Of a DNA stretch of 64,000 bases, positions 6,257-42,416 are shown in pieces. Location of the stretch: the NCBI GenBank assembly GCA_003056145.1, contig LSNL01000001.1, positions 73,351 through 137,350 on the forward strand, in the 5' to 3' direction. How positions within the stretch are numbered: the stretch's first letter is position 1; each line of letters begins with the position of its first letter. The position numbers and the translations under genes are program-made. The notes beneath the pieces are model-generated. The model saw only the letters and a list, made by a program, of their open reading frames with translations. It was not told where the DNA came from and ran no database searches. This stretch comes from Parcubacteria group bacterium M10-OD1-1. Its GTDB lineage: Bacteria; Patescibacteriota; Minisyncoccia; Moranbacterales; UBA2206.

Positions 6257-7105
6257 TTATTTTTTAGTTAGCAGTCTAGTTGCAATAAGTGTATTTTTCA
6301 TAAGCATTGCAATCGTCATAGGTCCAACTCCTCCAGGAACCGGAGTTATAGCTTTTGCAACTTTCGAAACTTTTTGGAAGTCAACATCTCCAACTAGTTT
6401 GCCATTTTCATCTCGGTTCATTCCAACATCAATAACTATCGCTCCTAATTTTACCATATCTCTAGTTATGAGTTTTGCTTTCCCAGTGGCGGAAATCAAG
6501 ATATCTGCTTTTAAACATTCTTCTTTTAGTTGTTTAGTTTTATTATTACAAAGTGTGACCGTTGCTTCTAAATTGGACAACATAATAGCTAGAGGTTTTC
6601 CAATAATATTACTACTTCCCACAATAACACAGGCTGAACCTGCAATTTTTACTCCGTATATTTTGAGTATTTCTAAAATTCCTAATGGAGTGCATGGATA
6701 AAAATCACTTTCTCCTATTATCACTTTGCCTATATTTCTTGGATGGAAACAATCAACATCTTTTTTTGGGTTAATTGATTCAATTATATTTTCCTCATTG
6801 ATGTGACTTGGTAGTGGTAATTGAATTAGTATTCCGTGAATTTTTTCATTATTATTTAATTTCTTAATTAAATTAAGAAGATCTGCTTCTGTTGTTTTCT
6901 CTGCTAAGCGATACATCGTAGAAATTATCCCTAATTCTTGACAGGATTGTTCTTTGTTTCGAACATAAATGTTAGAAGCTGGATCATTACCAACTAGAAT
7001 CACGGACAGGCTTGGTTGAATATTATCTTTTTTCATAGATAAAACTTCCCGAAGAAAATCCTTTTTGATATTTTGGGCTATTTTTTTTCCATCAATAATA
7101 TTCAT
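6257..7105 (-). CDS. folD: Bifunctional 5,10-methylene-THF dehydrogenase / methenyl-THF cyclohydrolase
   Basis: Conserved FolD blocks: VILVGNDPASNIYVRNKEQSC, HGILIQLPLP, GSACVIVGSSNIIGKPLAIML and PVPGGVGPMT. Confidence 0.9.
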   Translation of the reverse strand: MNIIDGKKIAQNIKKDFLREVLSMKKDNIQPSLSVILVGNDPASNIYVRNKEQSCQELGIISTMYRLAEKTTEADLLNLIKKLNNNEKIHGILIQLPLPSHINEENIIESINPKKDVDCFHPRNIGKVIIGESDFYPCTPLGILEILKIYGVKIAGSACVIVGSSNIIGKPLAIMLSNLEATVTLCNNKTKQLKEECLKADILISATGKAKLITRDMVKLGAIVIDVGMNRDENGKLVGDVDFQKVSKVAKAITPVPGGVGPMTIAMLMKNTLIATRLLTKK

Positions 7106-9751: not shown

Positions 9752-10035
9752 ATCTTCTTTAGCATAAAAAATATAATAACTTCAGTCAAGAGCCTAAAAG
9801 TATAAGAAAGTTAAGTAAATTATGATTTTTACTTTGAGCTAAAAAACTGTTTAAAAAGAAGCAATGTGATATAATGAAATTAGTTTAAAAAAGAATTTTT
9901 TTATTAAGTAGTAGCAGAAATTAAATAAATAATAGGTTATAAGTTACCGAATAGAGGAAGGTCCAGTCTATTGGAATAAGGACTAGTATTAGTAAAGAAT
10001 AGAAATAGACTAAAAAATTTAAACAGAAATATATA

Positions 10036-12066
10036 ATGAGTGTCTCTAATTTTTTAAATAAACTTAAAACTAAACCAGATATATGGTTCTTTTCGGTTTT
10101 TTTATTGACTTTTACTCTTAATATTAGAAAAGTATTATTTTACTTTCCTCAACAAGGAACATTTAATGAATATACTGGAATATATGTTTATATGTCAGAT
10201 ATATTCTTATTATTAACCATAGGTTTATGGTTAATATCATTATATTACAATAATATATTTAAATTGTCAAGGGATAAGCTGTGGATAACTTATTTTTTCT
10301 CTAAAAAATATCTAATAATCCCCTTAGCTCTAGTTATATGGTCATTTATATCTATTTTTTGGTCTAGCTATCAGTCCATAGCTTTTTTTAGATCAATAAA
10401 GCTATTGGAATTTTACTTACTTTACTTATATGTAATTTTTAGATTTAGTCCTTTTTTCTTTATTAAACAAGACTATGATAATAAAATAAAGGAAGGGGAA
10501 AAAATATTAGAAGTTAACCAATTGAATGTACTGAAAAATGTTCCACGTGGAACATTTTTTAATTTTAAATATAAAGAAATAATCCGATATTTCTTTCTGA
10601 CGATTGTTGGTATAAGTGTAATTCAATCAATTATTGCCATTAATCAGGTAATTATTCAAAAATCAGTGGGTTTAGGCGCTTTGAGAGAAAGTTTTATATC
10701 TCCTAGCTTACCAGGAGTAGCTAAAGTGATTTTAGGAGGAGATAAATATATTAGAGCTTATGGTTTAATGCCTCATCCTAATATTTTAGGTGGTTTTTTG
10801 TTGTTTTCAATAGTAATAAGTCTACTCTACTTAAAATTGTTCCACGTGGAACAATTCGCTTTTGTTGAAAAAGGCGGGATGGCTTCAAAAAAGGATGGAA
10901 GTAAAAGTAATAGACTTGTCGGATTGAAAATGTTCCACGTGGAACATTTTCAAAAGAAAAGTAGTTTTTTTAACTCAGTAATGTTCCACGTGGAACATTT
11001 TAAGAAAAAATATTTTTCACCGCCTTCGTCTCAAGAACAAATTGTTCCACGTGGAACAATTTTAAGTAAAATCTGGCATGTAGTTAGATGGCGAGGTATG
11101 ATGAAAGTATGTTTTTTAGATAGCTACATTTTTATTAAAAAGTTTGTTAAAAAAGATAAATGGCTTATTAAAGCCTTTATTTTAATTCAAGTCCTAGCTC
11201 TTTTTTTAAGTTTCTCCAAATCGGCAATTATAGGTTTAGTTATTTCTTTAATTTATATTGTATATAAATTAAATGTTCCACGTGGAACATTTATATTGCA
11301 ATGGAAAAAAATAAGATTAGTAACTAGCTTAAGATATTTTCGCATATCAATACTGATGATATTAGTGATATGTTCCTTTATAATAATATTTCTAAAGCCA
11401 GATTTTAATACTGTATTTTTTCAATCATTACGAGAACGTTTATTTTATCTAAATGTTTCACGTGGAACAATTTTAAGTAGTCCGATTTTGGGAATTGGAT
11501 CAGGACAATTTGTGATAAATATCCCTTATTTCTCCCAAAATGTTGTTTTGCCTTGGGAATATCAACCAGTGCATAATGTTTTTCTACTGGTTTGGAGCGA
11601 ATTAGGAATAATTGGAGTAGTTTTGTTTTCTTGGTTTATTTTAAAATTGTTCCACGTGGAACAATTTAATTTGCTTAAAAAAGATAACTTAACTTCAAAG
11701 AAAGATGAAAATAAAAATAAAAAGTTCCTCGGATTAAAAATGTTCCACGTGGAACATTTTGAGAAAAAAGAATCATTATTGCATGTAGTTAAAGAGACAA
11801 TTGTTCCACGTGGAACAAATGAACATTTTGAAAAAAATAGGAATAAAGAAATTAATAGTATAGCTAAAAGAAACAAGAAAGATAATATATTATACAATAA
11901 GAATAGATATTTGTCAATGAATTATCTTCTTATTTATTTTCAGGGAATATTATTGGGTTTCGTTTTTATTATGCTTTTTGACCATTATTTGTGGGATATT
12001 CAGCAAGGTAGCGTCTTGTTTTGGCTAGTTTGCGGATTTATTGTTGGAAATAAGAAAGTGTGTTAA
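10036..12066 (+). CDS. O-antigen-ligase-like membrane protein carrying ten in-frame palindromic insertions and an internal duplication
   Basis: 676-aa uninterrupted ORF. N-terminus is polytopic membrane. Ligase motifs appear twice (MPHPNILGGFLLFS…LYLKLFHVEQF and PVHNVFLLVWSELGIIGVV…FILKLFHVEQF). The C-terminus resembles the neighbouring ligase paralogs. Confidence 0.5.
   Translation: MSVSNFLNKLKTKPDIWFFSVFLLTFTLNIRKVLFYFPQQGTFNEYTGIYVYMSDIFLLLTIGLWLISLYYNNIFKLSRDKLWITYFFSKKYLIIPLALVIWSFISIFWSSYQSIAFFRSIKLLEFYLLYLYVIFRFSPFFFIKQDYDNKIKEGEKILEVNQLNVLKNVPRGTFFNFKYKEIIRYFFLTIVGISVIQSIIAINQVIIQKSVGLGALRESFISPSLPGVAKVILGGDKYIRAYGLMPHPNILGGFLLFSIVISLLYLKLFHVEQFAFVEKGGMASKKDGSKSNRLVGLKMFHVEHFQKKSSFFNSVMFHVEHFKKKYFSPPSSQEQIVPRGTILSKIWHVVRWRGMMKVCFLDSYIFIKKFVKKDKWLIKAFILIQVLALFLSFSKSAIIGLVISLIYIVYKLNVPRGTFILQWKKIRLVTSLRYFRISILMILVICSFIIIFLKPDFNTVFFQSLRERLFYLNVSRGTILSSPILGIGSGQFVINIPYFSQNVVLPWEYQPVHNVFLLVWSELGIIGVVLFSWFILKLFHVEQFNLLKKDNLTSKKDENKNKKFLGLKMFHVEHFEKKESLLHVVKETIVPRGTNEHFEKNRNKEINSIAKRNKKDNILYNKNRYLSMNYLLIYFQGILLGFVFIMLFDHYLWDIQQGSVLFWLVCGFIVGNKKVC
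10534..11818. repeat. Ten dispersed copies of a 16-bp perfect palindrome TGTTCCACGTGGAACA inside one gene, often extended to 18-26 bp by A/T runs
   Basis: Cores at 10539, 10838, 10931, 10982, 11043, 11274, 11454 (variant gtttcac), 11648, 11741 and 11802. Spacing is irregular (59-300 bp). The palindrome has no stop in any frame, giving the peptide motifs VPRGT / FHVE(H/Q)F / CSTWN. Confidence 0.9.
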
Positions 12067-12089
12067 TCTTAAATTAATCTTATTTTAAG

Positions 12090-12183
12090 TAAGACTAAGA
12101 CTAAGACTAAGACTAAGACTAAGACTAAGACTAAGACTAAGACTAAGACTAAGACTAAGACTAAGACTAAGACTAAGACTAGA
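12090..12183. repeat. Hexanucleotide microsatellite (TAAGAC)x15.5
   Basis: Perfect tandem repeat directly visible in the sequence, starting 24 bp after the stop of the palindrome-bearing gene and ~110 bp upstream of the next ORF. Confidence 0.95.
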
Positions 12184-12293
12184 TTTTAGATGTCTTAGTG
12201 AATAAAATTATTTGTTTTTAATTTTAAATATAATTATTTTTTAGAGAGCTATCATTTTTTTCAAGTTCTTTATAGAGATTACCATAATTCAGG

Positions 12294-13496
12294 ATGGATA
12301 GAGATTATTATCGAAATATTCCCCTTTTGTATATTTACAGTATATTTATTAAGCGGGTTTCGCAACCTATTATTATTTTATATTTTTTGCTTAATAGGTT
12401 GAGTTTTGCTCAAATAGGGATATTAGCTGCGACAACGCTTGTTGTTCAGATGACGACAGATATTTATGGAGGGATATTTGCAGATACTTATGGAAGAAAA
12501 GCTACACTTTTATTACATTCGGTTTTCGGGGCTATAACGATGTTATTTTATTTTATTGGAAATTCTTTTCCGTGGTTCTTTTTAGCAAGTATTATGTATG
12601 GAATTGCTGGGGCATTTATAACTGGGACAAGAAATTCCATTCTTTATGATACACTAATAAAACTTAATAGGGTGGTTGAATTTAAAAAATTCAATGGAAG
12701 AGTTTTGTTATATTCACATATAATCAATGCTTTAGTGCTTTTAATGATTCCTGTTATGTATACTTTTAACGTTAAATTGCCATTTCTTTTTGGTATTGGA
12801 TTTTTTCTGATTTCATTTATTCTGGCGCTTTTCTTTATTGAACCGCAGTTGGAAAAAAAATCAGAGAGGGCTTTACCAGTGTATGGTACTAAAATTATTG
12901 AAGCGTTAAGAGAAATTAAGCTAAATAAAAAATTGATAATTGCTATTCTTCTTTCTATGTTTACAGCTTCTTTTATTTTTATGGGAGTTGGATATATACA
13001 GCCTCTTTTGAAAATTTCTAAATTACAAGTTGTTTATTTTGGTGTTGTTTATGCATTAATGAGTGGATTAATGGGGATTGGTGGACTGATTACGCATAAA
13101 CTAGAAAAGTACTTTACTCAAGAAAGATTATTAATTTTGGGGCTCGGAGGTATTACTATAAGCTTTTTGGGATTTTCCTTTAGTGTAGGAGTAGGGATTA
13201 TCTTGGCTGTTTTAATATTGAAACTTTCTGAAGGTTTTAATCGGATTATATTAGAAGATGAGATTAATAAAAATATAGAGTCAAAGAATAGAACGACAAT
13301 TTTATCTGTGACTAGTTTATCCAAAACGCTGGCTACTAGTGGATTAATACTTATTTTTGGTTTTATTTCAGATTTAGTTGGTGTTCAGCATATGTTTAAC
13401 TATGCCTTAGGATTATTTTTTGTTATAATTATTGTAACTTGGATTCTTGTTAATAATATTAAACGAGCGAAAAGAAGAGAATATGGCGTAAATTGA
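12294..13496 (+). CDS. Major facilitator superfamily transporter
   Basis: ~11-12 TM segments. MFS motif A GGIFADTYGRKATLL lies between TM2 and TM3. The exact start is uncertain. Confidence 0.6.
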   Translation: MDRDYYRNIPLLYIYSIFIKRVSQPIIILYFLLNRLSFAQIGILAATTLVVQMTTDIYGGIFADTYGRKATLLLHSVFGAITMLFYFIGNSFPWFFLASIMYGIAGAFITGTRNSILYDTLIKLNRVVEFKKFNGRVLLYSHIINALVLLMIPVMYTFNVKLPFLFGIGFFLISFILALFFIEPQLEKKSERALPVYGTKIIEALREIKLNKKLIIAILLSMFTASFIFMGVGYIQPLLKISKLQVVYFGVVYALMSGLMGIGGLITHKLEKYFTQERLLILGLGGITISFLGFSFSVGVGIILAVLILKLSEGFNRIILEDEINKNIESKNRTTILSVTSLSKTLATSGLILIFGFISDLVGVQHMFNYALGLFFVIIIVTWILVNNIKRAKRREYGVN

Positions 13497-25521: not shown

Positions 25522-25716
25522 AGAATTATTAGTAGCTATTTATTCGCAAAAAACTGTTTCTGAAAAAGAAACAGTTTTTGTTTTAACAACTAAAATGTTC
25601 AAGTGAAAAGTGTTAAACCTTAAAAACAATTAATGAAATAAAATTATTTAAGCTTGTTCTAATTAATTTTAAGTAAAAACTTAAAATATAATCAGTAAGC
25701 TAGTTAGAGATATTAG

Positions 25717-25788
25717 TGGGACCAGCAGGATTCGAACCTGCGACCAAGCGATTATGAGTCGCCTGCTCTACCGCTGAGCTATGGTCCC
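25717..25788 (-). tRNA. tRNA with CAT anticodon (elongator Met or lysidine-modified Ile2)
   Basis: Reverse complement GGGACCATAGCTCAGCGGTAGAGCA-GGCGA-CTCATAA-TCGCT…GCAGGTTCGAATCCTGC-TGGTCCC-A. The G1-C72 pair and lack of GGG/CCC in the anticodon stem argue against an initiator. Confidence 0.7.
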
Positions 25789-25799
25789 TTATATTCTAG

Positions 25800-25873
25800 T
25801 GGGCGTATCCCGACTCGAACGGGAGACCTCTTCCATGTCAAGGAAACGCTCTAACCAACTGAGCTATACGCCC
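25800..25873 (-). tRNA. tRNA-Val (GAC)
   Basis: Reverse complement GGGCGTATAGCTCAGTTGGTTAGAGCG-TTTCC-TTGACAT-GGAAG…CCCGTTCGAGTCGGG-ATACGCCC-A. Confidence 0.75.
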
Positions 25874-25971: not shown

Positions 25972-26931
25972 TTAGGATAAGGACTGAGTTTTAGAATGAA
26001 AAGTTTTATGAATTTCTTTAAGGCGAAGATTAGTTAAATGAGTATAAATTTGAGTTGTAGTGATAGAGGAATGTCCTAGCATTTCTTGAACACTTCTAAT
26101 ATCAGCTCCATTAAGTAATAAATCAGTAGCAAAAGAATGACGCAAAGTGTGCGGATGAACATTTTTAATAACGCCAGCTTTAGCAGCATAGTATTTAACT
26201 ATTCGTTGAATTGAACGAGGAGATAGTCGTAAATTAGCTGAAGAATTATTTTTTGGAGAAAGTTTTTTTGAGGAGGCAAATTTTTTTAATCCTTTTGTAT
26301 CTCTAATGAAAAGGGCAGGGTCAAGATCATTTCTTTTTTGAAGATAATTTGTAACAGCTTGAGTGGCAGTTTGAGAAACAAAAACGACTCTAATTTTACT
26401 TCCCTTGCCACGAATACTCAACTCGCCATGGCATTTATCAATTTTATCTCTATTAATGCTAATTAATTCGGAAACCCGAAGCCCAGTAGAGAATAGTAAT
26501 TCTAAAATAGCTCTGTCTCGAAGACTTTTAAAACTAGATCCAGAAGCTGAATTTAATATTCTTTTAACTTCGGTGGTTTCTAAAAAATCAATAGCTCTTT
26601 CGGGGACTTTTCCAATTTCAACTTTTTCAGCGGGGAGAGTGGAAACATTTTGTTTAGCTAAATATTTTAAAAAACTACGAATAGCAATTATATAATAGGT
26701 TTGAGTACTCTTTTTTAAGTATTCCTTTCTTTGATTTTTCTGATGATTAAGATAAAGGCGAAAATTTCTTAATAAATTATCATTAATCTCTTTGGCTTGA
26801 GTAATTTTAGCCCAATTAAAAAATTTTTCTAAATAACGATTATAATTTTCAATAGTTTTTGGGGAATGACCTTTTTCAATTTCTAGATATTCTAAAAATT
26901 GTTTTTTAAATTGCTGAATGTTCATAGGCAA
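25972..26931 (-). CDS. Tyrosine site-specific recombinase, XerC/XerD family
   Basis: C-terminal catalytic box HTLRHSFATDLLLNGADIRSVQEMLGHSSITTTQIYTHL and Xer-like N-terminal core-binding domain. Carries a ~25-aa K/S-rich insertion. Confidence 0.8.
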   Translation of the reverse strand: MPMNIQQFKKQFLEYLEIEKGHSPKTIENYNRYLEKFFNWAKITQAKEINDNLLRNFRLYLNHQKNQRKEYLKKSTQTYYIIAIRSFLKYLAKQNVSTLPAEKVEIGKVPERAIDFLETTEVKRILNSASGSSFKSLRDRAILELLFSTGLRVSELISINRDKIDKCHGELSIRGKGSKIRVVFVSQTATQAVTNYLQKRNDLDPALFIRDTKGLKKFASSKKLSPKNNSSANLRLSPRSIQRIVKYYAAKAGVIKNVHPHTLRHSFATDLLLNGADIRSVQEMLGHSSITTTQIYTHLTNLRLKEIHKTFHSKTQSLS

Positions 26932-32268: not shown

Positions 32269-32556
32269 TAAAGAAAATCAAAAATACGTTCTAAAAATTA
32301 GGAATAAATTTGAAAATCTTTCAATTTAATTTTATCGTAGCATTTTTTTAGAGAAATTATAAGAGGAAAAGTAAAAAAAACAGAAATATAAATTTTAATT
32401 TAAAAATTATTTAAAGCTGATATTAAAGGTGACTGGACAAAAACAAAATTTTATGTTAATTTTTAAAAGTAATTATTTAACTAGCAAATATTGGTTCAGG
32501 GGAATTTTTAAAATAACTAAGCATTTCCTTTGCGACGAGTATTTGGCCGAAAAAAT

Positions 32557-32826
32557 ATGGCTTTAACCAGCAAACAAAAAGAGAAAGTGACTAAAGAAGT
32601 AAAAAGGCATGAAAAAGATAATGGTTCTCCAGAATATCAGATTGCTCTTTTTTCAGAAAAAATTAAGAAATTAACTACTCATTTAAAAAAGAACAAAAAA
32701 GACTTTCATTCCAGAAGAGGATTACTAAAAATGGTCGCCAAAAGAAAGAAATTGATGAGTTATTTAAAGAAAACTAACGAAAAAGCTTATAAGGTTATTA
32801 TCAAAAAACTTAAATTAAAAGGATAA
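32557..32826 (+). CDS. rpsO: 30S ribosomal protein S15
   Basis: MALTSKQKEKV…GSPEYQIALFSEKIKKLTTHLKKNKKDFHSRRGLLKMVAKRKKLMSYL matches uS15. The ORF-track start at 32530 is probably too far upstream. Confidence 0.85.
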   Translation: MALTSKQKEKVTKEVKRHEKDNGSPEYQIALFSEKIKKLTTHLKKNKKDFHSRRGLLKMVAKRKKLMSYLKKTNEKAYKVIIKKLKLKG

Positions 32827-32841
32827 GCTAATAAAAAACAA

Positions 32842-32864
32842 AAACAGGTGAAAGCCTGTTTTTA
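32842..32864 (+). terminator. Intrinsic terminator after rpsO
   Basis: aaacagg-tgaaag-cctgttt followed by a T-run. Confidence 0.65.
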
Positions 32865-32873
32865 TCTAAAAAT

Positions 32874-33368
32874 ATGATATATAAAGAACAACGAGTAGGT
32901 GTTTTAGTAGATATACAAAATTTATATTATTCAGCTAAAGTACTTTATCAAAAAAAAGTTAATTTTGGGGCAGTTTTAAAAGCAGCTATTGAGGATAGAA
33001 AAATTATTAGATCCATTGCTTATGGGATAAAAACTCAAGAAGGACAAGAAGATAAATTTTTTGAAGCTTTAGAAAAACAAGGTTTTGAAGTTAAAACTAA
33101 AGATCTTCAAATTTTTCCTGGTGGAGCTAAAAAGGGTGATTGGGATGTTGGTATTGCGGTAGATGCTATCAAAATGTCTAAAAATTTAGATGTTATTGTT
33201 ATTGTTTCTGGCGATGGAGATTATATTCCATTAGTAAAATATATTCAAGGCACAACTGGCTGTCGAGTAGAAGGAGCGGCTTTTTTAGAATCAACAAGCG
33301 GTAAATTAGTAGAAGAGCTAGATAATTTTATTAATTTAAGTGCTAGTAAGAAAAAATTTCTTATCTAA
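32874..33368 (+). CDS. NYN-domain (LabA-like) protein
   Basis: VGVLVDIQNLYYSAK … DVIVIVSGDGDYIPLV are the hallmarks of PF01936 NYN/LabA. Confidence 0.65.
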   Translation: MIYKEQRVGVLVDIQNLYYSAKVLYQKKVNFGAVLKAAIEDRKIIRSIAYGIKTQEGQEDKFFEALEKQGFEVKTKDLQIFPGGAKKGDWDVGIAVDAIKMSKNLDVIVIVSGDGDYIPLVKYIQGTTGCRVEGAAFLESTSGKLVEELDNFINLSASKKKFLI

Positions 33369-33644
33369 ATTTTTTTAATTAACTTTACTTCAATAGTTTG
33401 AAAATGTTACAATAGTAAAGTTATTTAAAAATAAAAAATTTAATAGAACTTTAATGACAAATTAATTTTTTTAAAGAAGTTTTTATTTTTTTAGTGAAAA
33501 GAATATTTTTTAGAAAGAAACTAATGAAAGATTTGAAGGACGAAGTTTTAAATAATTAGTAGTAAAGGGAATTTAAGCTAATTTATTTTAAAAAGTTTTG
33601 TTAAGGCAGAGCATAAAAGCATGAAGACAACTAAAAATAAATTT

Positions 33645-33715
33645 GCGGGTGTCGTATAGTGGCAGTACAGGAGTCTCCAAAACTTCTAACGGGGGTTCGA
33701 TTCCCTCCACCCGTG
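33645..33715 (+). tRNA. tRNA-Trp (CCA)
   Basis: GCGGGTGTCGTATAGTGGCAGTAC-AGGAGT-CTCCAAA-ACTTC-TAACGGGGGTTCGATTCCCTCCACCCGTG. Anticodon CCA. Confidence 0.7.
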
Positions 33716-33862
33716 CATTAAAAAATAACCAAGAAAAGAGGCTCATTTAGGGCTATTCTTTGGTTCTAGTATTTTGATAGAAGATAGGACGTTAGAACTT
33801 TTTATAGTAATATAGAAATATAAAAAATGTTTTTTATATTATATTGAGAATGAATATTTAAA

Positions 33863-34792
33863 GTGATATTTATGTATTATATTTTACATCAACACTACGA
33901 GTCTGTTCTTAGGTTAGTAAAAATCGTCAACCCAAATAAACTAGATGAGTTTCATAGTATTTTTAACAGTAGTAGTTTTTTAAAATTAAATCCTCAATCA
34001 AAATTGAAATTTTTACAAAAATCATTACCAATTCCTGATAGTAAATATTTTACCCTAGAAAATTTTATTAAAGTTGTAGAACAAACCGTTGAAGAGATGG
34101 TACAACAAAATATATCTCATATTGATTTAAGAATTAGCTTGCACCTTGAAAGGTGGAAAGATATTTTTGATATTTGTCATGCTAGAAATATATACGATAA
34201 AGTACTTGCTAGACATATAGATAAAACTATTTTTTTTATAGCTGCCATAGATATGAAAAAATCAGAAGCAGAAATAGAGAAGAGCATAGGAGCGTTGTTT
34301 AAAAAAAAGACTCTTGAATCGATTGTTGGCATTGATATTACCATGTATAAAGAGGATGTTTATAAGTTTAATAAATACTATAAAACATTGCTTAGTTTGA
34401 GGAATGAACATAAAAAAAAGATTATTATGCATTTAGGGGAGTTTACTACAAATGATATTAATTTCGAAATCATACGTAAAATAAAGCCAGATAGAATAGC
34501 TCATGGAATAACATTATTGGATTCTCCAAAATTGTGTGAATTTATTAAACATAATAATATATGTTTAGATATGTGCCCAGTTAGTAATAAAGTACTAGGA
34601 GTCGTTGACTGGGAAAAGCATAATCCCATTAAAAAAGCTACTGATTTGGGTATATCTGTAACTATAAACACTGATGATCCAATAATGTTTGATACAAACA
34701 TCAATAAGGAAATTAAAACCGCCAATTTAAGTCAACAACAATTAAATTTATTAATAGAAAACAGTAAAAAATATTCAGCGGAAAATATTTGA
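33863..34792 (+). CDS. Adenosine/AMP-deaminase-family metal-dependent hydrolase
   Basis: Deaminase blocks HIDLRISLH, MHLGEF (like HAGE), DRIAHGITL (like RIGHG) and SVTINTDDPIMFDT (like SLNTDDP). Confidence 0.55.
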   Translation: MIFMYYILHQHYESVLRLVKIVNPNKLDEFHSIFNSSSFLKLNPQSKLKFLQKSLPIPDSKYFTLENFIKVVEQTVEEMVQQNISHIDLRISLHLERWKDIFDICHARNIYDKVLARHIDKTIFFIAAIDMKKSEAEIEKSIGALFKKKTLESIVGIDITMYKEDVYKFNKYYKTLLSLRNEHKKKIIMHLGEFTTNDINFEIIRKIKPDRIAHGITLLDSPKLCEFIKHNNICLDMCPVSNKVLGVVDWEKHNPIKKATDLGISVTINTDDPIMFDTNINKEIKTANLSQQQLNLLIENSKKYSAENI

Positions 34793-34893
34793 CAGTTAGT
34801 ATCTATTGTTATATTATTTATTGTTGCAAAGAGTTTTTTGCAACAATGTTAAATAGTACTTTAAAAACAATATTATATAAAGAGAGGTGCATT

Positions 34894-35304
34894 ATGAAAG
34901 AAAGAGTTAGGGCAATAATTAAAGAAGGTGAAAATATTCTCTTAATTCACAGAATAAAAAAAGGAAGAGGATATTGGGTTTTTCCTGGAGGGGGTACTAA
35001 AAAAACTGATATTGATCATAAGTCAGCATTGATTAGGGAATGCGATGAAGAACTTGGTGTTAGTGTTCGGGTTGGTGGTTTATTTATCACTTATGAATTT
35101 GGTGAAGCCGGTAAAGAACAGCACGAATATTTTTATTTTTGTGAAATTACTAGCGGTGAACTTGGAACTGGCTCTGGTCCAGAATTTCAAAAAGGAACAC
35201 ATTACGAAGGTGTGTATGCATTAGAATGGATACCACTGAAAGATTTTTTAACAAAAAACATTCAACCTGAAAAGGTAAAGAAAGAATTGCAAAAGGAGAC
35301 TTGA
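34894..35304 (+). CDS. NUDIX hydrolase (paralog A)
   Basis: MKERVRAIIKEGENILLIHR…GYWVFPGGGTKKTDIDHKSALIRECDEELGV Nudix box. The ORF track extends upstream to 34789, but the RBS-less leader suggests the ATG at 34894. Confidence 0.6.
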   Translation: MKERVRAIIKEGENILLIHRIKKGRGYWVFPGGGTKKTDIDHKSALIRECDEELGVSVRVGGLFITYEFGEAGKEQHEYFYFCEITSGELGTGSGPEFQKGTHYEGVYALEWIPLKDFLTKNIQPEKVKKELQKET

Positions 35305-35305
35305 A

Positions 35306-36463
35306 ATGCAAATTGCTATTAATGGTGTTGACGGGGTTGGTAAAAGCCAGCAAATAAAGCTTCTGCAACTCTATAATGCTGGAAGTTTTAATTTTACGGG
35401 TTCATTAACTAAATACTCTTCAATATGGCCCGAATTAAAAAGTCATGACATGTTCAACTGGTGGTTTAAGGAAGTAGAATTTGACGAGTTTCTGAATATT
35501 GTTTTCGAATCATTAAACACAAGACATTCAGAATTTGAAGATTCGGTTGTAATCCTGGATCGAGGAACGTTGATGTTTAAAGCGGTATGTGCAGCAACTA
35601 TGTCAGTAAGAATGGGACTTGAACTTCTTGATTCCATGAAAGAAATTGATTTGCGTTTTGCCAAAGGTCTCTTTTATGGTCTAGACGAAGAACATAATAT
35701 TCTTCTGGAACCAGATGTTAGATATCAAAGTTCTATAAAACCATATATTTCACTATTACAAAATGAATCAAATAATTTCACGGAGGAGGAAAATGAATTT
35801 TATCTCAGTTATCAGAATCTTCTTAAGGAAGCGATGGTAATTTACTTTAGAGATGAAGCAATTAACAGGATAACAGTAGATAGATCAATCTGTGAAATTC
35901 AAGACAAACTGAGATTATTGATCAATGAATTAGCGGATGTTTCATTGCCCGAAATATGCAGTGGTATAAAGCAAGTTATTGGCTTTGGAGGCTTGAGTGA
36001 ATGTGGAAAAAGTAGTTTTGCGCAACATTTTTACAAAAAGAAGGGATATTACAGGTTGAAACTTGGGTATTTCGTAGAGATTCTTAAACGGCGTTATGAG
36101 AAAGATACGCCAGAAAGTGTTGCGATGGAATTTCTGCATTTTTGTAAATCGCATTACTATATTGAAAATTTTACACTCGAGAGCCTGCATGAACCATATA
36201 CCCCAGCCTTTCTTAAATTGTTGTTTGGATCTAGGTTTAAAATTGCATATTTAGATGCTCCTTTCGATGTAAGATGTAAACGCGCTTCTATTGAGAAAGG
36301 AGTTTCATTGGTTGAAGCTGAAAAAGAAACAAGAAGGAAGGATCTTATAAAAGAAGGAAGGGGGGCGAAGATAGTCAGTGAAATAGCTGATATTAAGTTT
36401 AACAACTCCAATGGAAAACATTGTGAGAATATGCTAAAATTTGAAAAGGCAGTTATGCCTTGA
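35306..36463 (+). CDS. Two-domain P-loop nucleoside/nucleotide-kinase-like protein
   Basis: N-terminal INGVDGVGKS plus a DRG(T) motif (dTMP-kinase/dNK-like). Second P-loop GFGGLSECGKSS with YLDAPFDVRCKR (CMP/shikimate-kinase-like). Noticeably higher GC and different codon usage than the flanks. Confidence 0.4.
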   Translation: MQIAINGVDGVGKSQQIKLLQLYNAGSFNFTGSLTKYSSIWPELKSHDMFNWWFKEVEFDEFLNIVFESLNTRHSEFEDSVVILDRGTLMFKAVCAATMSVRMGLELLDSMKEIDLRFAKGLFYGLDEEHNILLEPDVRYQSSIKPYISLLQNESNNFTEEENEFYLSYQNLLKEAMVIYFRDEAINRITVDRSICEIQDKLRLLINELADVSLPEICSGIKQVIGFGGLSECGKSSFAQHFYKKKGYYRLKLGYFVEILKRRYEKDTPESVAMEFLHFCKSHYYIENFTLESLHEPYTPAFLKLLFGSRFKIAYLDAPFDVRCKRASIEKGVSLVEAEKETRRKDLIKEGRGAKIVSEIADIKFNNSNGKHCENMLKFEKAVMP

Positions 36464-36536
36464 GAAATTTTAGTACCAGGAGGAGATGCTGAAATGATCT
36501 CCTCCTATTTTTTTTAAAATTAAACTTATTAGAGTT

Positions 36537-36968
36537 ATGTTGCATAGAGTTCGTGCTATTATTTTAAAAAATAATCAGCTGCTAACAATTAAAAGAGTAA
36601 AAACAAATATTACATATTTTGTTTTTCCTGGAGGTGGTGTAGAATCGGGAGAAGGATTAGAGGAGGCCATTAAGAGAGAATGCGAAGAAGAGCTTGGTGT
36701 TAATATTGATATTGTTAAAAAATTTATTTCAAAGAGATTTGATATAGGTGAAATAGAACAGGTAGAACATTTTTATATATGTGAAATTGTTTCAGGTGAG
36801 CTTGGCACAGGAGATGGTCCAGAGTATAATAATAACTTGGGTTATGAAGGAACTCATAAAATAGAATGGCTCGACATTTTTGATTTGTTGAATTATGACT
36901 TAAGACCCAAAGAGATTGCTCTAAAATTAATAAATAATTTGAAGGATGATAAAAAATTTAAGAGTTAA
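36537..36968 (+). CDS. NUDIX hydrolase (paralog B)
   Basis: MLHRVRAIILKNNQLLTIKR…YFVFPGGGVESGEGLEEAIKRECEEELGV, co-linear with paralog A. Confidence 0.6.
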   Translation: MLHRVRAIILKNNQLLTIKRVKTNITYFVFPGGGVESGEGLEEAIKRECEEELGVNIDIVKKFISKRFDIGEIEQVEHFYICEIVSGELGTGDGPEYNNNLGYEGTHKIEWLDIFDLLNYDLRPKEIALKLINNLKDDKKFKS

Positions 36969-37989
36969 TAAAAATAGAAATAATACGAATGGAATATTTT
37001 CTATCAAAGATCAAAAATTTTTTTATAAAATTCTTTGTTTGGACGATTACGAGAAGGAATTGAAAGGGTATCAATTCATTAAAGAGGCGTATCCTGTGGC
37101 AAATTTAATATTTCATGGGTATATAAATAATAAAAAGAACGGACTTTTGATTTTTGAATACGAGAAAACTATTGAGAAAAATAGAGGATTATTAATTGAT
37201 ATTTTTTCAAGTAGAAAGAGTTATAGAGTAGATGTAGAAATTTTTGATAGCATATTAGATGTTTATAAAAAAGCATTTCAAAATAGTTTTAAACGAACTA
37301 GTTCAAAAACTTCCGACATATTTTTTAGAGACAGGATAAAAACAAGACTGAAAACTTATTATAAGAAATTTTTTTTCAAAGAAATATATAAATTAAAATT
37401 TAAGTTTAAAAAATGGGAAATTAGAAATATTGAATTTAAAAAAATAATTAGACTTTTAGAAAAGTTTTTAATTAACAAGAGAAACGAGTATTGTGTTTTA
37501 TCACAATGTGATCCAAATGATTTAAATATTGGAATAAAACCAATTATTCTCGACTATCTTGGCGGGGGATATAATCCCATAATGGCTGAATTCGCAATTC
37601 TTTTTTGGTATTGTATTGCTCAGGGAAATTATTTTTCAGTCGTTTATAATAAAAATGAATATACTAATCATTCAATTATTATTAAAAAGATTGATAAGGT
37701 AATTTTTGATAAAGGAAAATTAAATCATTTTCCCAATAAAAAAAGAATTATTTTTTTGATTAATTACATAGATAAAGTAATTGATCCATTGATAAAAAAA
37801 ATGCCAGACAATTATGATTGGTATGAAGATTTTAAAAATTATTTAGCTATGAGAATTATTTCTGTTTTTAATATTTCAAAAATGAAAGCTAAGGATAAAA
37901 ATTTATCCTTAGCTTATTTAGATATTTTTTATAATCAATTAAAAATAAATAAAACCTCTCAATTAATAGAGGTGATTAAAAATTTATGA
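36946..37989 (+). CDS. Hypothetical protein, possibly APH/choline-kinase-like phosphotransferase fold
   Basis: QCDPNDLNIG resembles the catalytic-loop HxDxxxxN, and ILDYLGGG resembles the DFG/'IDxE' metal-binding motif. Very AT-rich, K/N/I-rich. Weak call. Confidence 0.3.
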   Translation: MIKNLRVNKNRNNTNGIFSIKDQKFFYKILCLDDYEKELKGYQFIKEAYPVANLIFHGYINNKKNGLLIFEYEKTIEKNRGLLIDIFSSRKSYRVDVEIFDSILDVYKKAFQNSFKRTSSKTSDIFFRDRIKTRLKTYYKKFFFKEIYKLKFKFKKWEIRNIEFKKIIRLLEKFLINKRNEYCVLSQCDPNDLNIGIKPIILDYLGGGYNPIMAEFAILFWYCIAQGNYFSVVYNKNEYTNHSIIIKKIDKVIFDKGKLNHFPNKKRIIFLINYIDKVIDPLIKKMPDNYDWYEDFKNYLAMRIISVFNISKMKAKDKNLSLAYLDIFYNQLKINKTSQLIEVIKNL

Positions 37990-38693
37990 GCAGTCTAACA
38001 ATAGAAAAATACAGAGAAAAAGAAGGGGCTTTCTTTGATTATTTAAGCAAGAATTTAAAGGAAAATTTATTGTTTTATGCTGTAGCAGGAAGCGTGTCAC
38101 GAGGTGATATTATTCCTGGTTGGAGTGATATAGATGTACTAGTTGTTATTCAGGAATATAATAAAAAAAATACATCATTTATCAATAAGGCACTATTAAG
38201 GGATTCTTCAAATATTAAGATCGGCTTAACGTTATTTTCGTTTGACGACTTTACGAATATTAAATTATTCAAGGATCCTAAGACTTTATATTCAATTGAT
38301 TTAATTGATCAAGGAATTTGTAAACCCAAAATAATCGATAAAAAAACAATAAATAGCATAAATAAAATCAAGAAAATATCAGTTTGGTATAATAAGGATA
38401 GCTTAGCGAGTATTATTCATAGTTATAAGCATGCTTTGTTTCCAATTAATAAATATGATGAAAAAATAGTTTATAAAAAACTAGTGACTATATTAAAAAT
38501 TATTTTAAAACAAAAAGGTATAACAGCTCATAGTTATAGCGATGTTGTAAGCATATCCAAAAGTAAATTAAATGGTTTTGATATAAAATTAAAAACCCCA
38601 ATTTATATAATGAAAAATTTAAATACATCCTTAAGGCGTTATAATGATTATGTTAAGTTTCTTGCATGGCTAGAAGATTATCCAAAATTTTAA
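37986..38693 (+). CDS. Pol-beta-superfamily nucleotidyltransferase
   Basis: LFYAVAGSVSRGDIIPGWSDIDVLVV is the GS-x9-13-DxD motif of minimal / aminoglycoside-lincosamide-type nucleotidyltransferases. Confidence 0.5.
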   Translation: MSSLTIEKYREKEGAFFDYLSKNLKENLLFYAVAGSVSRGDIIPGWSDIDVLVVIQEYNKKNTSFINKALLRDSSNIKIGLTLFSFDDFTNIKLFKDPKTLYSIDLIDQGICKPKIIDKKTINSINKIKKISVWYNKDSLASIIHSYKHALFPINKYDEKIVYKKLVTILKIILKQKGITAHSYSDVVSISKSKLNGFDIKLKTPIYIMKNLNTSLRRYNDYVKFLAWLEDYPKF

Positions 38694-38706
38694 ATAGATA
38701 TATTGT

Positions 38707-39795
38707 ATGAATAAAAAAATAATTGTAAAGCTTCCCTACATAACACAGGAAATATTCATAGGTGAAAAAATGCTTGATTTTGTTGTTTCAAAAATTAAAA
38801 GTAGGAAATATGATAAGTATATTTTAATTGTTGATATAAATGCCAAAAAAGATAGGAGGAATTATTTTAACAGACTGATTAACGATTTAAATATAGTAGA
38901 CATTATAGTGCTACAGCCAACACCAAATTACAAGAGTTTTAAAGAGTGTGAAAAAGTTATAAAGAGACTGATAAAAGTTAAAGCCTCAAGAAAAAGTTGT
39001 TTAATATCAGTGGGCGGAGGTTATGTTTCTGATATAACCGGATATGTCGCTTCAAATTATATGCGGGGTATTGGTTTCGTCCAAATATCAACCACTTTAA
39101 TGAGTATGGTCGATGCAGTAATTGGTAAGGTGGCAATTAATTATGGAAATTATAAAAATTTACTTGGGTCATTTTACTCTCCAAAGTTTGTATTTAGTGA
39201 TTTAAATTTTTTATCGACATTAAGAAAAGAAGAAAAAGTTTTGGGGTTGTCGGAGGTTTGGAAACATGCGTTGATAAAGAGAGACGAGGATATTGTTAAA
39301 AAGATTGAAAGCTATTTGTTAAATTTTTCAGATAAACATTATTCGGAATTTATTCATTTTTCGATGAGGGTAAAAAAATCCTGCGTAGAGAACGATTATG
39401 ATGATAGAATTGGTAGTCATAAGGCTTTGAGTTTGGGACATACTTTTGCAAATTTTTTAGAAAGAAAATCCAAAATGAGGCATGGTGTTGCTGTGATGTA
39501 TGGAATTATTTTTGCTACAATATTATCAAAAAGATTGGGGAAATTATCTTTAGAAAACTATACTAGAATTATTAAAACTGCTAAGAGATTTGAAAAAAAT
39601 ATTGGCTTATTGAAAAGTATACAAAAGGATTTAAAAGTTAAAAAAGTTTTGGAAAGTTTTTTTTCTGATAAGATTAGTGAAAATAATTCTTTGAATTTTG
39701 TTTTACCTATTGATTCAGGATATTTAATATATAAAAACATACCAGAAAAAATAGCTACAGAAGCCTTAGAAATATTTAAGAAATTAGAACTCTAG
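38707..39795 (+). CDS. 3-dehydroquinate-synthase-like sugar-phosphate cyclase
   Basis: ISVGGGYVSDITGYVASNYMRGIGFVQISTTLMSMVDAVIGKVAINYGNYKNLLGSFYSPKFVF matches the DHQS NAD/substrate-binding core. LGHTF…RHGVAVMYG matches the metal-binding His motifs. Confidence 0.65.
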   Translation: MNKKIIVKLPYITQEIFIGEKMLDFVVSKIKSRKYDKYILIVDINAKKDRRNYFNRLINDLNIVDIIVLQPTPNYKSFKECEKVIKRLIKVKASRKSCLISVGGGYVSDITGYVASNYMRGIGFVQISTTLMSMVDAVIGKVAINYGNYKNLLGSFYSPKFVFSDLNFLSTLRKEEKVLGLSEVWKHALIKRDEDIVKKIESYLLNFSDKHYSEFIHFSMRVKKSCVENDYDDRIGSHKALSLGHTFANFLERKSKMRHGVAVMYGIIFATILSKRLGKLSLENYTRIIKTAKRFEKNIGLLKSIQKDLKVKKVLESFFSDKISENNSLNFVLPIDSGYLIYKNIPEKIATEALEIFKKLEL

Positions 39796-40088
39796 TATCT
39801 TTTGGTGCGGGAATATAAATATATTTAGTCTTCTTTTTAAATATAGTTCTAATATCCTTTGCTAGGGCGTGCATTAAAGAAACATTGGTTGATAAAGCTG
39901 GTATTTCTTATTTTACTAAGAAGCTTAAGATAATGGTTTTTGTAGCGAGGACAATCTTTTTGGCTGTTTCAATAAATAAAAAATAATTCTTTGAGTAAAA
40001 TTCTAAATGAGAGGAAAATAATTATTAATTTTTCATTGAACATAATTATTTGTCAATAAATTCAAAAAAAAGTTTGTATATAAATTTT

Positions 40089-40117
40089 TTGACAAAATAG
40101 AGAAAATAGGTTAAAAT
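40089..40117 (+). promoter_or_regulatory. Sigma70-like promoter for pnp with ~190-nt leader
   Basis: TTGACA, 17-bp spacer, TAAAAT. Confidence 0.5.
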
Positions 40118-40310
40118 TAGTAGTAAATAAAGTAAAAATAATAATTTAAATTAAAGTCTTTTTTAATAAAAAGAAAAATATCCTTAGTTCACCAAAAGAT
40201 AGGTGAAACCGCAATTAAACACTTAAAGAATTGAGTTTTTGATTGTAGTTTTTCCTTTAGAGTGAAGTAGGATTTCTTATTCTATTTTTGTAAAAAAGAT
40301 TAGCTATCTT

Positions 40311-42416
40311 ATGGAACAAAAAAAATGGTCCCTTCAAATCGGAGGGAGAATTTTAGAAATTGAAACTGGATTATTAGCTAACCAAGCTAGTGGATCAGTA
40401 ACTTGTCGTTACGGGGATACGGTTGTTTTAGCAACGGCGGTTATGAGTAAAAATGCCTCTCGGGTGAGTGGCTATTTTCCGTTAATGGTTGATTTTGAAG
40501 AACGTTACTATGCCGCTGGTAAAATCAAGGGTTCTAGATTTATTAAAAGAGAGGGTCGTCCTTCTGATACAGCTATTCTTTCTGGGCGAGCAGTTGATAG
40601 AACTATTAGACCACTTTTTAACTCTAGAATGAGAAATGATGTGCAAGTTATTTGCACGGTGCTTTCTTATGATGGAGAAAATGATCCAGATGTAATAGCA
40701 ATGATTGCGGCTTCTGTTGCATTATCTATTTCTAATATTCCTTGGGATGGTCCAATTGCAGCGGTAAGAGTAGGCAAAACAGGAGAAGAAATGATTTTAA
40801 ATCCAGTCAATGGTGAAGTAACAGATGGAGAGATAGATCTTTTAGTGGCTGGAACAAAAGATAAAATAAATATGATTGAGTGTGGAGCTAAAGAAGTGGC
40901 CGAAGGAGAAATATTTCAAGCTTTTGAATTTGCTCAAGAGGCGATTGCTAAAATTGCTATTTTTATTGAAGCTATACAAAAAGAAGTAGGCAAAGAAAAA
41001 ACTATTCCTATTTTAATTCAAGGAACACCAGAATTTGAAGAAAAAATTAAAGAAATTCTATTAGCGGAAGGATTAGCAGAGGCTTTGTATAATAAAGATA
41101 AGAATATTATTGAAGAAAAAACTAAACTTATCCAAGAAAAAGTTCAGCAATATATTGAAGAAAATTATTCAGAAGGAATAGAAAAATTAAAAGAAATTGC
41201 AGAATTAGTATCAGAAAAAGTAGCGGACAATATTGTACATAAAAACATTTTAGAAAAAGAGCAACGACCAGATGGAAGAAAATTAACTGAAATTAGAAAA
41301 ATTGATTGCCAAACTGGGATTCTTCCTAGAACTCACGGGACAGGCTTATTTACTAGAGGAGAAACACAAGCTTTAACAGTGGCTACTTTAGGTTCTCCGG
41401 GAGACGAACAAATTATTGATACTATGGAAGTGGATACTAAAAAAAGATATATTCATCATTATAATTTTCCTCCTTTTTCAGTTGGCGAAACTCGTCCAAT
41501 GAGAGGTCCAGGTAGACGGGAGATTGGACACGGAGCCTTAGCAGAAAAAGCTTTAATTCCAGTTTTACCATCTAAAGAAGAATTTCCTTATACGATGCTT
41601 TTAGTAAGTGAGGTACTTTCTTCTAATGGTTCTTCTTCAATGGCTTCTACTTGTGGTTCCACGCTTTCTTTAATGGACGCTGGTGTTCCAATTAAGCGTC
41701 CAGTGAGTGGTATTGCGATGGGAATAATTGTTAAAGATAAAAATAATTTTAAAATTTTAACTGATATTCAAGGGTTAGAAGATCATTATGGAGATATGGA
41801 CTTTAAAGCGGCTGGTACAGAAAAAGGGTTAACTGCTATTCAAATGGATGTTAAAGTAGAAGGTGTAACTTTACCTATGTTAGAAGCTGTCTTAAAACAA
41901 TCTCATGGTAATCGAATAGAAATTTTAGGTAAAATAGCAGAAGCGATTAGTGAGCCAAGAAAAGAAATGTCGCAATACGCACCAAGAATTATAACATTAC
42001 ATATCAATCCTGATAAAATTAGAAATGTTATCGGAGCGGGAGGAAAAATAATCAATGCTATTATTGACGAAACAGGAGTCCAAATTGATATTGAAGATGA
42101 TGGATCTATTTTCATTACTTCAGCCGATAAAACTTCTGCTCAAAAAGCGGTAGAATGGATTAATAATTTAACTCATGAAGTAAAAACTGGTGAAAATTTC
42201 AAAGCTAAAATTATAAAGATTATGAACTTTGGAGCTTTTGCTGAAATTTTACCAGGACAAGAAGGCCTAATTCATATTTCTGAGATTAGCGAAAAAAGAA
42301 TTGAGAAAGTAGAAGATGTTTTAAAGGTTGGAGATATAGTGCCAGTTAAAGTAAAAGAAATTGATCAACAAGGGAGAATAAGTTTATCTATGAAAGCAGT
42401 CAAAGAGGATAATTAG
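40311..42416 (+). CDS. pnp: Polynucleotide phosphorylase
   Basis: 701 aa with two RNase PH domains, KH (…IGAGGKIINAI…) and a C-terminal S1 domain (…FGAFAEILPGQEGLIHISEI…). Confidence 0.9.
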   Translation: MEQKKWSLQIGGRILEIETGLLANQASGSVTCRYGDTVVLATAVMSKNASRVSGYFPLMVDFEERYYAAGKIKGSRFIKREGRPSDTAILSGRAVDRTIRPLFNSRMRNDVQVICTVLSYDGENDPDVIAMIAASVALSISNIPWDGPIAAVRVGKTGEEMILNPVNGEVTDGEIDLLVAGTKDKINMIECGAKEVAEGEIFQAFEFAQEAIAKIAIFIEAIQKEVGKEKTIPILIQGTPEFEEKIKEILLAEGLAEALYNKDKNIIEEKTKLIQEKVQQYIEENYSEGIEKLKEIAELVSEKVADNIVHKNILEKEQRPDGRKLTEIRKIDCQTGILPRTHGTGLFTRGETQALTVATLGSPGDEQIIDTMEVDTKKRYIHHYNFPPFSVGETRPMRGPGRREIGHGALAEKALIPVLPSKEEFPYTMLLVSEVLSSNGSSSMASTCGSTLSLMDAGVPIKRPVSGIAMGIIVKDKNNFKILTDIQGLEDHYGDMDFKAAGTEKGLTAIQMDVKVEGVTLPMLEAVLKQSHGNRIEILGKIAEAISEPRKEMSQYAPRIITLHINPDKIRNVIGAGGKIINAIIDETGVQIDIEDDGSIFITSADKTSAQKAVEWINNLTHEVKTGENFKAKIIKIMNFGAFAEILPGQEGLIHISEISEKRIEKVEDVLKVGDIVPVKVKEIDQQGRISLSMKAVKEDN

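Follow-up and report, generated by a model that had tools for sequence, protein, structure and literature searches.

We analyzed a 64-kb stretch of contig LSNL01000001.1 from Parcubacteria group bacterium M10-OD1-1, a member of the Moranbacteria (Patescibacteria) with a tiny genome; this whole stretch is called the window, and all coordinates are its positions unless a contig is named. In the window, a block of 6.2 kb (about 33645-39878), composed of a tRNA-Trp gene and a seven-gene operon, is a lineage-specific insertion in the ancestral spacer between an NYN-domain gene and pnp. The block is probably a degraded tRNA-linked island, with the seven genes as a Patescibacteria enzyme cassette of small-molecule metabolism.

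In E. coli and most bacteria, rpsO and pnp are linked as an operon. The preliminary description of this DNA had placed them about 7.5 kb apart, separated by a terminator, the NYN gene, tRNA-Trp(CCA), and seven further genes. Our open reading frame (ORF), tRNA, and domain searches recovered this layout, with a hairpin 3' of rpsO and all seven genes pointing the same way. On the forward strand, rpsO (ribosomal protein S15, 89 amino acids (aa)) occupies 32557-32826, in an ORF from a TTG at 32530 (Ribosomal_S15 PF00312, E = 2e-31; TIGR00952, 110.7 bits against a cut-off of 63.65), and is the ancestral left neighbor of the inserted block. The ancestral right neighbor is pnp, encoding polynucleotide phosphorylase (PNPase; 40311-42416, forward; TIGR03591, 929 bits), whose product reaches a top identity of 81% with proteins of Candidatus Moraniibacteriota/Patescibacteria metagenome-assembled genomes (MAGs). 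The NYN gene (32874-33368, forward; PF01936, E = 8e-34) follows rpsO, and tRNA-Trp(CCA) at 33645-33716 (forward; ARAGORN; Rfam RF00005, 57.6 bits) forms the left end of the block, its attL side.

The seven forward-strand genes (about 33863-39795) are tightly packed, with four junctions that overlap or are at most 13 nucleotides (nt) long. They encode an adenosine/AMP-deaminase-like (ADA-like) amidohydrolase of 306 aa (33872-34792; PF00962), Nudix hydrolase 1 of 136 aa (34894-35304; PF00293, E = 2e-13), the 385-aa protein unk385 (35306-36463), the MutT-type Nudix hydrolase 2 of 143 aa (36537-36968; PF00293, E = 4e-15), the 347-aa protein unk347 (36946-37989), a Pol-beta-type nucleotidyltransferase (NTase) of 235 aa (37986-38693; PF01909, E = 2e-5), and a dehydroquinate synthase-like (DHQS-like) sugar-phosphate-cyclase homologue (38707-39795; PF01761 and PF24621). 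A non-coding stretch of 515 nt separates the last gene from pnp.

For the comparison with relatives, we used 80 genome loci (pnp homologues) and 80 metagenome loci (NYN homologues), onto which the proteins and tRNAs of the window were mapped. The NYN-pnp gap measured 6,942 nt here. It ranged from 120 to 1,974 nt across 43 metagenome loci, from about 40 to 2,350 nt across 15 genome loci, and from 235 to 931 nt in the closest relatives (NYN 84-88% and PNPase 78-81% identical). None of the 58 relatives with NYN and pnp had tRNA-Trp or any of the seven genes in this gap. The preliminary description had read the separation of rpsO and pnp as an insertion, and the spacing in relatives bears this out: the segment, missing from the site in 58 of 58, is lineage-specific.

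The same description had also counted the NYN gene as part of the insertion, which the comparison did not bear out. The order in Patescibacteria was rpsO-NYN-pnp (Moranbacteria, Portnoy-, Azam-, and Spechtbacteria, and unclassified MAGs), with NYN between the two genes in 15 genome loci and in most of the 80 metagenome loci; in the non-Patescibacteria matches, rpsO lay immediately 5' of pnp. Because this order is conserved across Patescibacteria, NYN is ancestral and lies outside any insertion. Judging from these gene orders, rpsO-NYN-pnp seems to be the phylum-wide form of the rpsO-pnp operon in Patescibacteria, and the presence of an NYN (LabA-like) nuclease-domain gene in it suggests a link to RNA turnover. 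Our literature searches found no account of the cassette or of rpsO-NYN-pnp in the Candidate Phyla Radiation.

The junctions of the block were recovered independently. The right junction (cassette to pnp) is 100% identical in L082 and L083, two contigs of other sequencing runs, and the independent NCBI assembly GCA_006243085.1 (L184) spans the left side from NYN through tRNA-Trp to the cassette leader, differing at two positions. An assembly artefact is therefore excluded as the source of this arrangement.

The first cassette gene starts at 33872, shortly after the tRNA-Trp end at 33716, which is the adjacency to a tRNA seen in islands. A direct repeat of the tRNA-Trp 3' end had been predicted near 39.8-40.3 kb, and one is present at 39868. 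The 11-nt sequence CGTGCATTAAA occurs exactly twice in the 64 kb (33712-33722 and 39868-39878, both forward), with 0.02 occurrences expected by chance. The left copy consists of the last 5 nt of the tRNA and 6 nt downstream. The right copy, 73 nt past the stop of the DHQS-like gene, ends an attR-like remnant on the forward strand (39838-39878) that repeats part of the tRNA-Trp 3' end in decayed form. In an information-weighted exact-match test of CGTGCATTAAA on the 515-nt spacer, the score was reached in 9 of 1500 shuffles (p ~0.006) and in none of 239 real windows. A local alignment between tRNA and flanks that ignored composition was uninformative, because AT-rich matches dominated its null, and the weighted test was used instead. 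Taken alone, the repeat in the window is suggestive of a tRNA 3'-end repeat.

The decisive evidence comes from a second lineage, contig L176 (SRR13727534), which carries the same bracketing. Its cassette proteins are 60-87% identical to those of the window, most of them 79-87%, and tRNA-Trp lies directly upstream of the ADA-like gene, as in the window. The 3' flank of L176 (its positions 6872-6975) is homologous to window 39810-39915. The far-end copy of L176, better preserved than that of the window, reads TCCTTCACCACCCGTGCA, and the T-arm/acceptor 3' end of its own tRNA-Trp is TCCCTCCACCCGTGC. These two share the GC-rich 10-mer CCACCCGTGC, a score that none of 3000 shuffles and none of 485 real controls attained. 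In two lineages, therefore, the cassette lies between a complete tRNA-Trp and a partial, decaying copy of the 3' end of that tRNA, which is the classical footprint of integrase-mediated insertion at a tRNA. The cassette leader (33717-33871, forward) also has blocks conserved with L176, and a hairpin with a terminator-like match (33740-33754) follows the tRNA.

Other candidate ends were considered around the block. A 9-15-nt inverted repeat (GTTAGAACT at ~33790 and AGTTCTAA(C/T) at ~39844) was set aside as element ends, since its right copy is better explained as the decayed T-loop of the tRNA repeat, and a generic repeat search returned only AT-rich chance repeats. In viral contigs, the tRNA-Trp 3' end was found only within full tRNA-Trp genes inside phage tRNA arrays, with no attP. 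Two such phage contigs with large tRNA arrays, L186 (2595-2667) and L187 (8196-8268), have a tRNA-Trp whose last 21 nt equal those of the window, and the remainder differs.

As we picture it, an island would have integrated at tRNA-Trp, so that a complete tRNA marks one boundary and a partial repeat of its 3' end, now decayed, marks the other. The integrase would since have been lost, and the island would now be fixed and immobile. An island-free attB junction would read tRNA-Trp...CCACCCGTGCATTAAA joined to GAAACATTGGTTG, and the attP junction after excision would read ...CTAGGGCGTGCATTAAA joined to AAATAACCAAG. Contig L084, found in four samples, equals window 36788-39897 and ends at the repeat start + 29. 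In a k = 31 graph, as in Logan assemblies, another molecule with a different left context that joins at the repeat would cause a break at precisely the repeat start + 29. The break is compatible with an alternative junction at the repeat and a possible island-free allele; an unseen variant at 39898 explains it equally well. At the other end of the block, Logan contigs L180-L183 and L185 end inside tRNA-Trp at window 33681, and L083 starts at window 33659.

The seven genes form part of a recurrent cassette of 5-9 genes with the conserved order [ADA-like]-Nudix-unk385-Nudix-unk347-NTase-[carbamoyltransferase]-[HAD phosphatase]-[DHQS-like], where square brackets mark optional modules; the carbamoyltransferase (NodU/TobZ-type) and the HAD phosphatase are additions in some copies. 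The same order was found in L085-L092 and L176-L178 from other Patescibacteria, in unrelated neighborhoods: radical-SAM/SPASM genes, the interval between YqeY and YbeY/FtsA/FtsZ, a restriction-modification pair, and histidine kinases. Nucleotide homology among the copies (68-79%) starts at the first gene and stops at the last, L176 excepted; conserved element ends were accordingly rejected for all copies save L176. All taxon-named homologues of unk385 (58 clusters) and unk347 (86 clusters) are from Patescibacteria. The cassette has moved between genomes as a unit.

Fusions were found for Nudix-unk385, unk385-NTase, Nudix-unk347, Nudix-DHQS, and HTH-unk347. Among them, Nudix 1 is fused to unk385 in P0015, Nudix 2 to unk347 in P0113, and the NTase to unk385 in P0057, P0058, and L175. 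These fusions tie the components into one pathway. A search of viral contigs returned only one distant relative of the cassette, L175 (IMG/VR UViG_2863349733_000003), which is high in GC and prophage-adjacent. At its positions 9971-12966, an unk385-NTase fusion of 632 aa, with an unk385 part 28% identical, is followed 3' by an APH-like gene; phage capsid genes flank this pair on one side and a short-chain dehydrogenase on the other. Therefore, the kinase-NTase-kinase trio exists outside Patescibacteria. Two further details of individual copies were recorded. An IS110-family transposase fragment lies upstream of one copy (L177, 1-462), and the DHQS-like gene is frameshift-split in two lineages (157 + 202 aa and 258 + 110 aa; L177 6466-7537 and L085 7356-8461), which suggests module decay or assembly errors.

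Regarding the cargo proteins, the ADA-like enzyme scores 94.9 bits with PF00962 (gathering score 27) and 104 bits with TIGR01430, under the equivalog cut-off of 216. Its translation carries the motifs HQH, HLGE, AHG, and NTDDP (HxH, HxxE, H, DD), and it matches ADA, AMP-deaminase, and ADAL-type proteins. The top PDB matches of Nudix 2 are CTP pyrophosphohydrolase and MutT, and Nudix 1 gives weaker matches to the same MutT and pyrimidine-NTPase models. unk385 has no Pfam family. Its AlphaFold model (pLDDT 92.9) matches dTMP, adenylate, and CMP kinases in Foldseek, and the P-loop is intact in both domains, as in a tandem of a dTMP-kinase-like and an adenylate-kinase-like P-loop kinase.

Likewise, unk347 has no Pfam family, and its predicted structure (pLDDT 94.5) is that of a small-molecule kinase of the APH/eukaryotic-like-kinase fold, with Foldseek probability 1.00 to APH(9), APH(3'), APH(4), and MTR kinase, and matches to amicoumacin kinase as well. 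The bilobal kinase fold comes with a catalytic D....N and a metal-binding D, and D189, N194, and D203 are invariant among the homologues. A PDB sequence search with unk347 and the NTase gave nothing significant. Like the APH + ANT pairs that modify aminoglycosides, the cassette sets an APH-fold kinase beside a small Pol-beta NTase whose C-terminal part is helical. Unlike in those pairs, Foldseek TM-scores are ~0.4-0.5 at 7-14% identity, Pfam APH does not match, and the genes always lie among Nudix/NMP-kinase genes and are fused in some genomes. PADLOC identified no defence system, only generic domain matches (the ADA of CARF-ADA, the Nudix of PDC-S07, and a weak Pol-beta cyclase).

The DHQS-like protein scores 253.2 bits with TIGR01357, under the equivalog cut-off of 305. 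It belongs to a clade of ~50 clusters, named only from Patescibacteria and Parcubacteria, which a bit-score gap separates from canonical AroB (at least 192 versus at most 156). In the clade, the AroB motifs R..LN.GHT.GH..E and DKK have become HK.LSLGHT.AN.LE and DKI, respectively (10 of 10 clade members aligned), whereas Bacillus-type AroB sequences in the same alignment keep the canonical motif. We take these altered motifs to be in the active site, with residue roles assigned after the A. nidulans and E. coli DHQS. GGG..D..G, presumably the NAD motif, and E183, H245, and H259, which we take to be the metal ligands, are invariant. The fold and domains (PF01761, PF24621), the Gly-rich motif, the E/H/H set, and several Lys, Asn, and Arg residues, presumably substrate contacts, are thus kept from AroB; unlike aroB, the gene sits in an operon of nucleotide enzymes and not among shikimate genes. 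Given the score below the cut-off, the separate clade, and the substituted motifs, the protein is a neofunctionalised sugar-phosphate-cyclase homologue and not AroB.

In the cargo, the two Nudix pyrophosphatases of MutT type, the tandem NMP-kinase, the APH-fold kinase, and the Pol-beta NTase form the core. The ADA/AMP-deaminase-like enzyme, the divergent DHQS-like cyclase, the HAD phosphatase, and the carbamoyltransferase are optional modules. The cassette may phosphorylate, nucleotidylate, and hydrolyse a small molecule derived from a nucleotide or a cyclitol, and the outcome would be the synthesis or recycling of an NDP-linked or phosphorylated metabolite. A more specific proposal, which we put forward tentatively, is a Patescibacteria-specific pathway in which the neofunctionalised cyclase and the nucleotide-handling enzymes would build a cyclitol- or nucleoside-derived metabolite, spread as a tRNA-Trp-using island and perhaps still polymorphic.

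Among the nearest known systems are the C7-cyclitol/aminocyclitol pathways (validamycin/acarbose), which use a cyclase, kinase, nucleotidyltransferase, and phosphatase and are paralleled by TobZ-type carbamoylation (see also PMC4426668). The cassette resembles them in its DHQS-family cyclase with a kinase, an NTase, and a HAD phosphatase, and some copies have a NodU/TobZ-family carbamoyltransferase. It differs in that its kinase and NTase are APH-fold and Pol-beta and not ROK and GlgC-like, in the lack of an aminotransferase, glycosyltransferase, or pseudoglycosyltransferase, in a cyclase that some copies do without, and in the presence of two Nudix proteins, the tandem NMP-kinase, and the ADA-like enzyme.

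The cassette could instead be an operon for nucleotide salvage and pool sanitation, in which the kinases phosphorylate scavenged (modified) nucleosides, the Nudix proteins hydrolyse aberrant NTPs, and the ADA-like enzyme deaminates adenine nucleotides, for example, N6-methyl-AMP. This is the main functional rival, a possible function that we hold to be doubtful, and it would suit an organism unable to make its nucleotides de novo. The closest similarity of both Nudix proteins is to NTPases of the MutT or CTP-pyrophosphatase type, unk385 is a dTMP-kinase and adenylate-kinase tandem, and the first enzyme matches the ADA, AMP-deaminase, and ADAL-type proteins noted above. Additionally, a route of MTH1 and a deaminase handles N6-methyl-adenine nucleotides (PMC7152754), and Patescibacteria lack nucleotide biosynthesis (PMC12455944). 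However, salvage leaves unexplained the Pol-beta NTase, which is a core member fused to a kinase, as well as the DHQS-like cyclase, the HAD phosphatase, and the NodU/TobZ-type carbamoyltransferase, and the cassette is patchy and not universal in Patescibacteria.

Several observations weigh against the tRNA-linked island and its proposed cargo. The repeat in the window is just 11 nt long and covers 5 nt of the tRNA, and composition-blind scoring of the L176 match is weak (p ~0.04). The block has no integrase, transposase, or conserved element ends, and all seven genes are enzymes. Additionally, tRNA-Trp was absent from the NYN-pnp spacer of every relative examined, so that no empty target was seen, and neither a tRNA nor a tRNA remnant was found near the other cassette copies; the tRNA link is therefore specific to the lineage of the window and L176. 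The composition of the cassette is host-like apart from unk385. For the function, some copies do without the DHQS-like, ADA-like, HAD, or carbamoyltransferase gene, and the core chemistry may therefore not be set by these modules. Of the integration next to a tRNA that had been proposed for this locus, the linkage to tRNA-Trp and the far-end repeat stand, and tRNA-Trp as a prior resident of the site is unproven. Two histories are possible: either tRNA-Trp was here before the island, or the tRNA and the island arrived or moved as one piece.

The nearest tyrosine recombinase, at 25972-26931 on the reverse strand (Phage_int_SAM_1 and Phage_integrase), adjoins tRNA-Met and tRNA-Val (25716-25873). 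It was rejected as the integrase of the island because it is syntenic in many relatives, at 57-70% identity, and it is most likely a housekeeping Xer-type enzyme.

A rival reading is an intragenomic rearrangement. A chromosomal segment that already had tRNA-Trp beside the operon would have been translocated into the rearrangement-prone NYN-pnp spacer, and the repeat would be a by-product or chance. We consider this unlikely. The lack of a mobility gene in the block, a tRNA-Trp that is resident at the site in no relative, the host-like composition of the cassette, the spacer as a hot spot with unrelated small genes in relatives, and the broken synteny around pnp in L003, L004, L011, and L012 all speak for such a move. 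What it does not explain is that, in two lineages, a partial copy of the tRNA 3' end stands precisely where the cassette ends, which is a signature of site-specific integration and not of random translocation. Moreover, transfer between genomes is shown by the unrelated contexts and by a cassette GC 0.04-0.11 below the flanks in four of five other copies, those with a flank GC of 0.37-0.44 (measured copies: cassette GC 0.29-0.37, flank GC 0.30-0.44).

Within the window, composition gave no such signal. The preliminary description had seen a GC-richer stretch with different codon usage at 34894-36463 and an extremely AT-rich one at 36946-38693, and had taken them as signs of a mosaic. The heterogeneity was found in part. 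In the window, GC3 peaks in unk385 (0.288, z = +3.1), whose codon use is also the most atypical (z = -2.9), and GC is lowest in unk347 (0.220, z = -2.8). However, the GC-rich stretch reaches 0.346-0.349 at the 1-kb scale, inside the range of 0.227-0.366 in a window of ~29% GC, and the GC3 of unk347 is ordinary (0.181, z = -0.4), so its AT-richness lies at the amino-acid level. The other six cassette genes are within 1.5 standard deviations in GC3. Since the overall composition is that of the host, it provides no evidence of foreign origin.

The mosaic itself, in which the two stretches were acquired separately from different donors in this genome, was not borne out, and we regard it as very improbable. 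It draws on the GC3 and codon use of unk385 and on the low GC of unk347. On the other side, the same pattern, with Nudix 1 and unk385 GC-richest and unk347 and the NTase among the AT-richest genes, recurs in five of five other copies measured, as expected of one conserved cassette, and the genes are contiguous or overlapping and fused in some genomes; the ordinary GC3 of unk347 also disagrees with it. If the composition is mosaic at all, it must have become so before the cassette spread. Nudix 1 and unk385 are also clearly higher in GC3 than the other cassette genes in L085, L087, L088, L090, and L092, as in the window and regardless of host GC, which may reflect an older composite origin or a gene-specific constraint.

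Finally, an ancestral region with differential loss in relatives, or a binning or assembly chimera, is scarcely credible: although Patescibacteria genomes are reductive and MAGs can be chimeric, dozens of independent, precise losses would be needed for the 58 of 58 loci with NYN and pnp, down to ~50% PNPase identity, that have neither the tRNA nor the cassette. Elsewhere the cassette occupies different neighborhoods, and independent assemblies of other samples reproduce both junctions with an identity of 100% or nearly so.

The insertion would leave pnp undisturbed, with its own ancestral promoter and leader. A consensus scan located the promoter TTGACA-17-TAAAAT at 40089-40117, followed by a leader of ~190 nt with a conserved hairpin (together 40089-40310, forward). 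A pnp promoter of its own at 40089 had been noted before and is present. It is not a result of the insertion, since the pnp-proximal 230 nt, which include the promoter and the leader hairpin, have homologous counterparts in relatives that lack the insertion and are therefore ancestral. Among Moranbacteria, the -35 region of pnp, TTGACAAAA, and the leader hairpin consensus, AAGCCACAATTAAGAACTTAAA...TTTGAGTTTT..ATTGTAGTTTT, are conserved. The hairpin had no Rfam match, and it recalls the autoregulatory pnp leader of E. coli. Over 31.5-43 kb, Rfam returned the tRNA and otherwise sub-threshold noise.

On the left side, a GC-poor, terminator-like hairpin with a 13-pair stem lies 3' of rpsO (32836-32867; consensus scan), with a putative role as a terminator. 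The non-coding spacer between NYN and the tRNA (33369-33644) has no ORF of at least 50 aa and no alignable homology to the spacers of relatives. Compared with the E. coli rpsO-pnp operon, the hairpin 3' of rpsO and a pnp with a proximal promoter and structured leader are alike; unlike there, Patescibacteria have an NYN nuclease-domain gene between the two, and this genome additionally has the 6.2-kb block.

The longer NYN-pnp gaps of relatives hold unrelated small accessory genes, and the spacer is therefore a recurrent landing site. L002 (8414-9760) has a HEPN/MNT pair and an IS200-like Y1 transposase in this spacer, and L121 (10596-12142) has an MNT and an Asn-synthase fragment. Other spacer genes were found at L111 1168-2005, L123 1328-1685, and L103 1729-2203; these three spacers together hold an HD-domain protein, a response regulator, and a DUF5684 protein. 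In L126 (10891-11937), an array of six tRNAs (Lys, Gln, Leu, Met, Ala, Ser) stands right after NYN, replacing pnp; tRNA genes can therefore relocate into this neighborhood.

Islands at tRNA-Trp are known, such as CGI48 of Shewanella (PMC8978831). As in tRNA-integrated islands of the tyrosine-integrase type, the block combines an intact tRNA with a partial 3'-end repeat, and its cargo is absent at the site in relatives and found elsewhere. Unlike them, it has no integrase or excisionase, measures only 6.2 kb, has a repeat decayed to 11 nt and a host-like composition, and its tRNA is not at this position in relatives. The cargo is an uncharacterised enzyme cassette restricted to Patescibacteria on a degraded tRNA-associated island, an element of a known kind, and no established idea is overturned by the findings at this locus.

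The locus is a clean example of a tRNA-linked island relic in the phylum. It also delimits well a cassette with two protein families that lack a Pfam model and a DHQS-family enzyme whose active site is altered. The genomes of Patescibacteria are minimal, and these bacteria presumably obtain nucleotides and most metabolites from hosts. The movement of accessory operons among them indicates functions that this host-dependent lifestyle selects for, and the proposed metabolite pathway, if true, would represent a rare secondary-metabolite-like capability in ultra-small symbionts.

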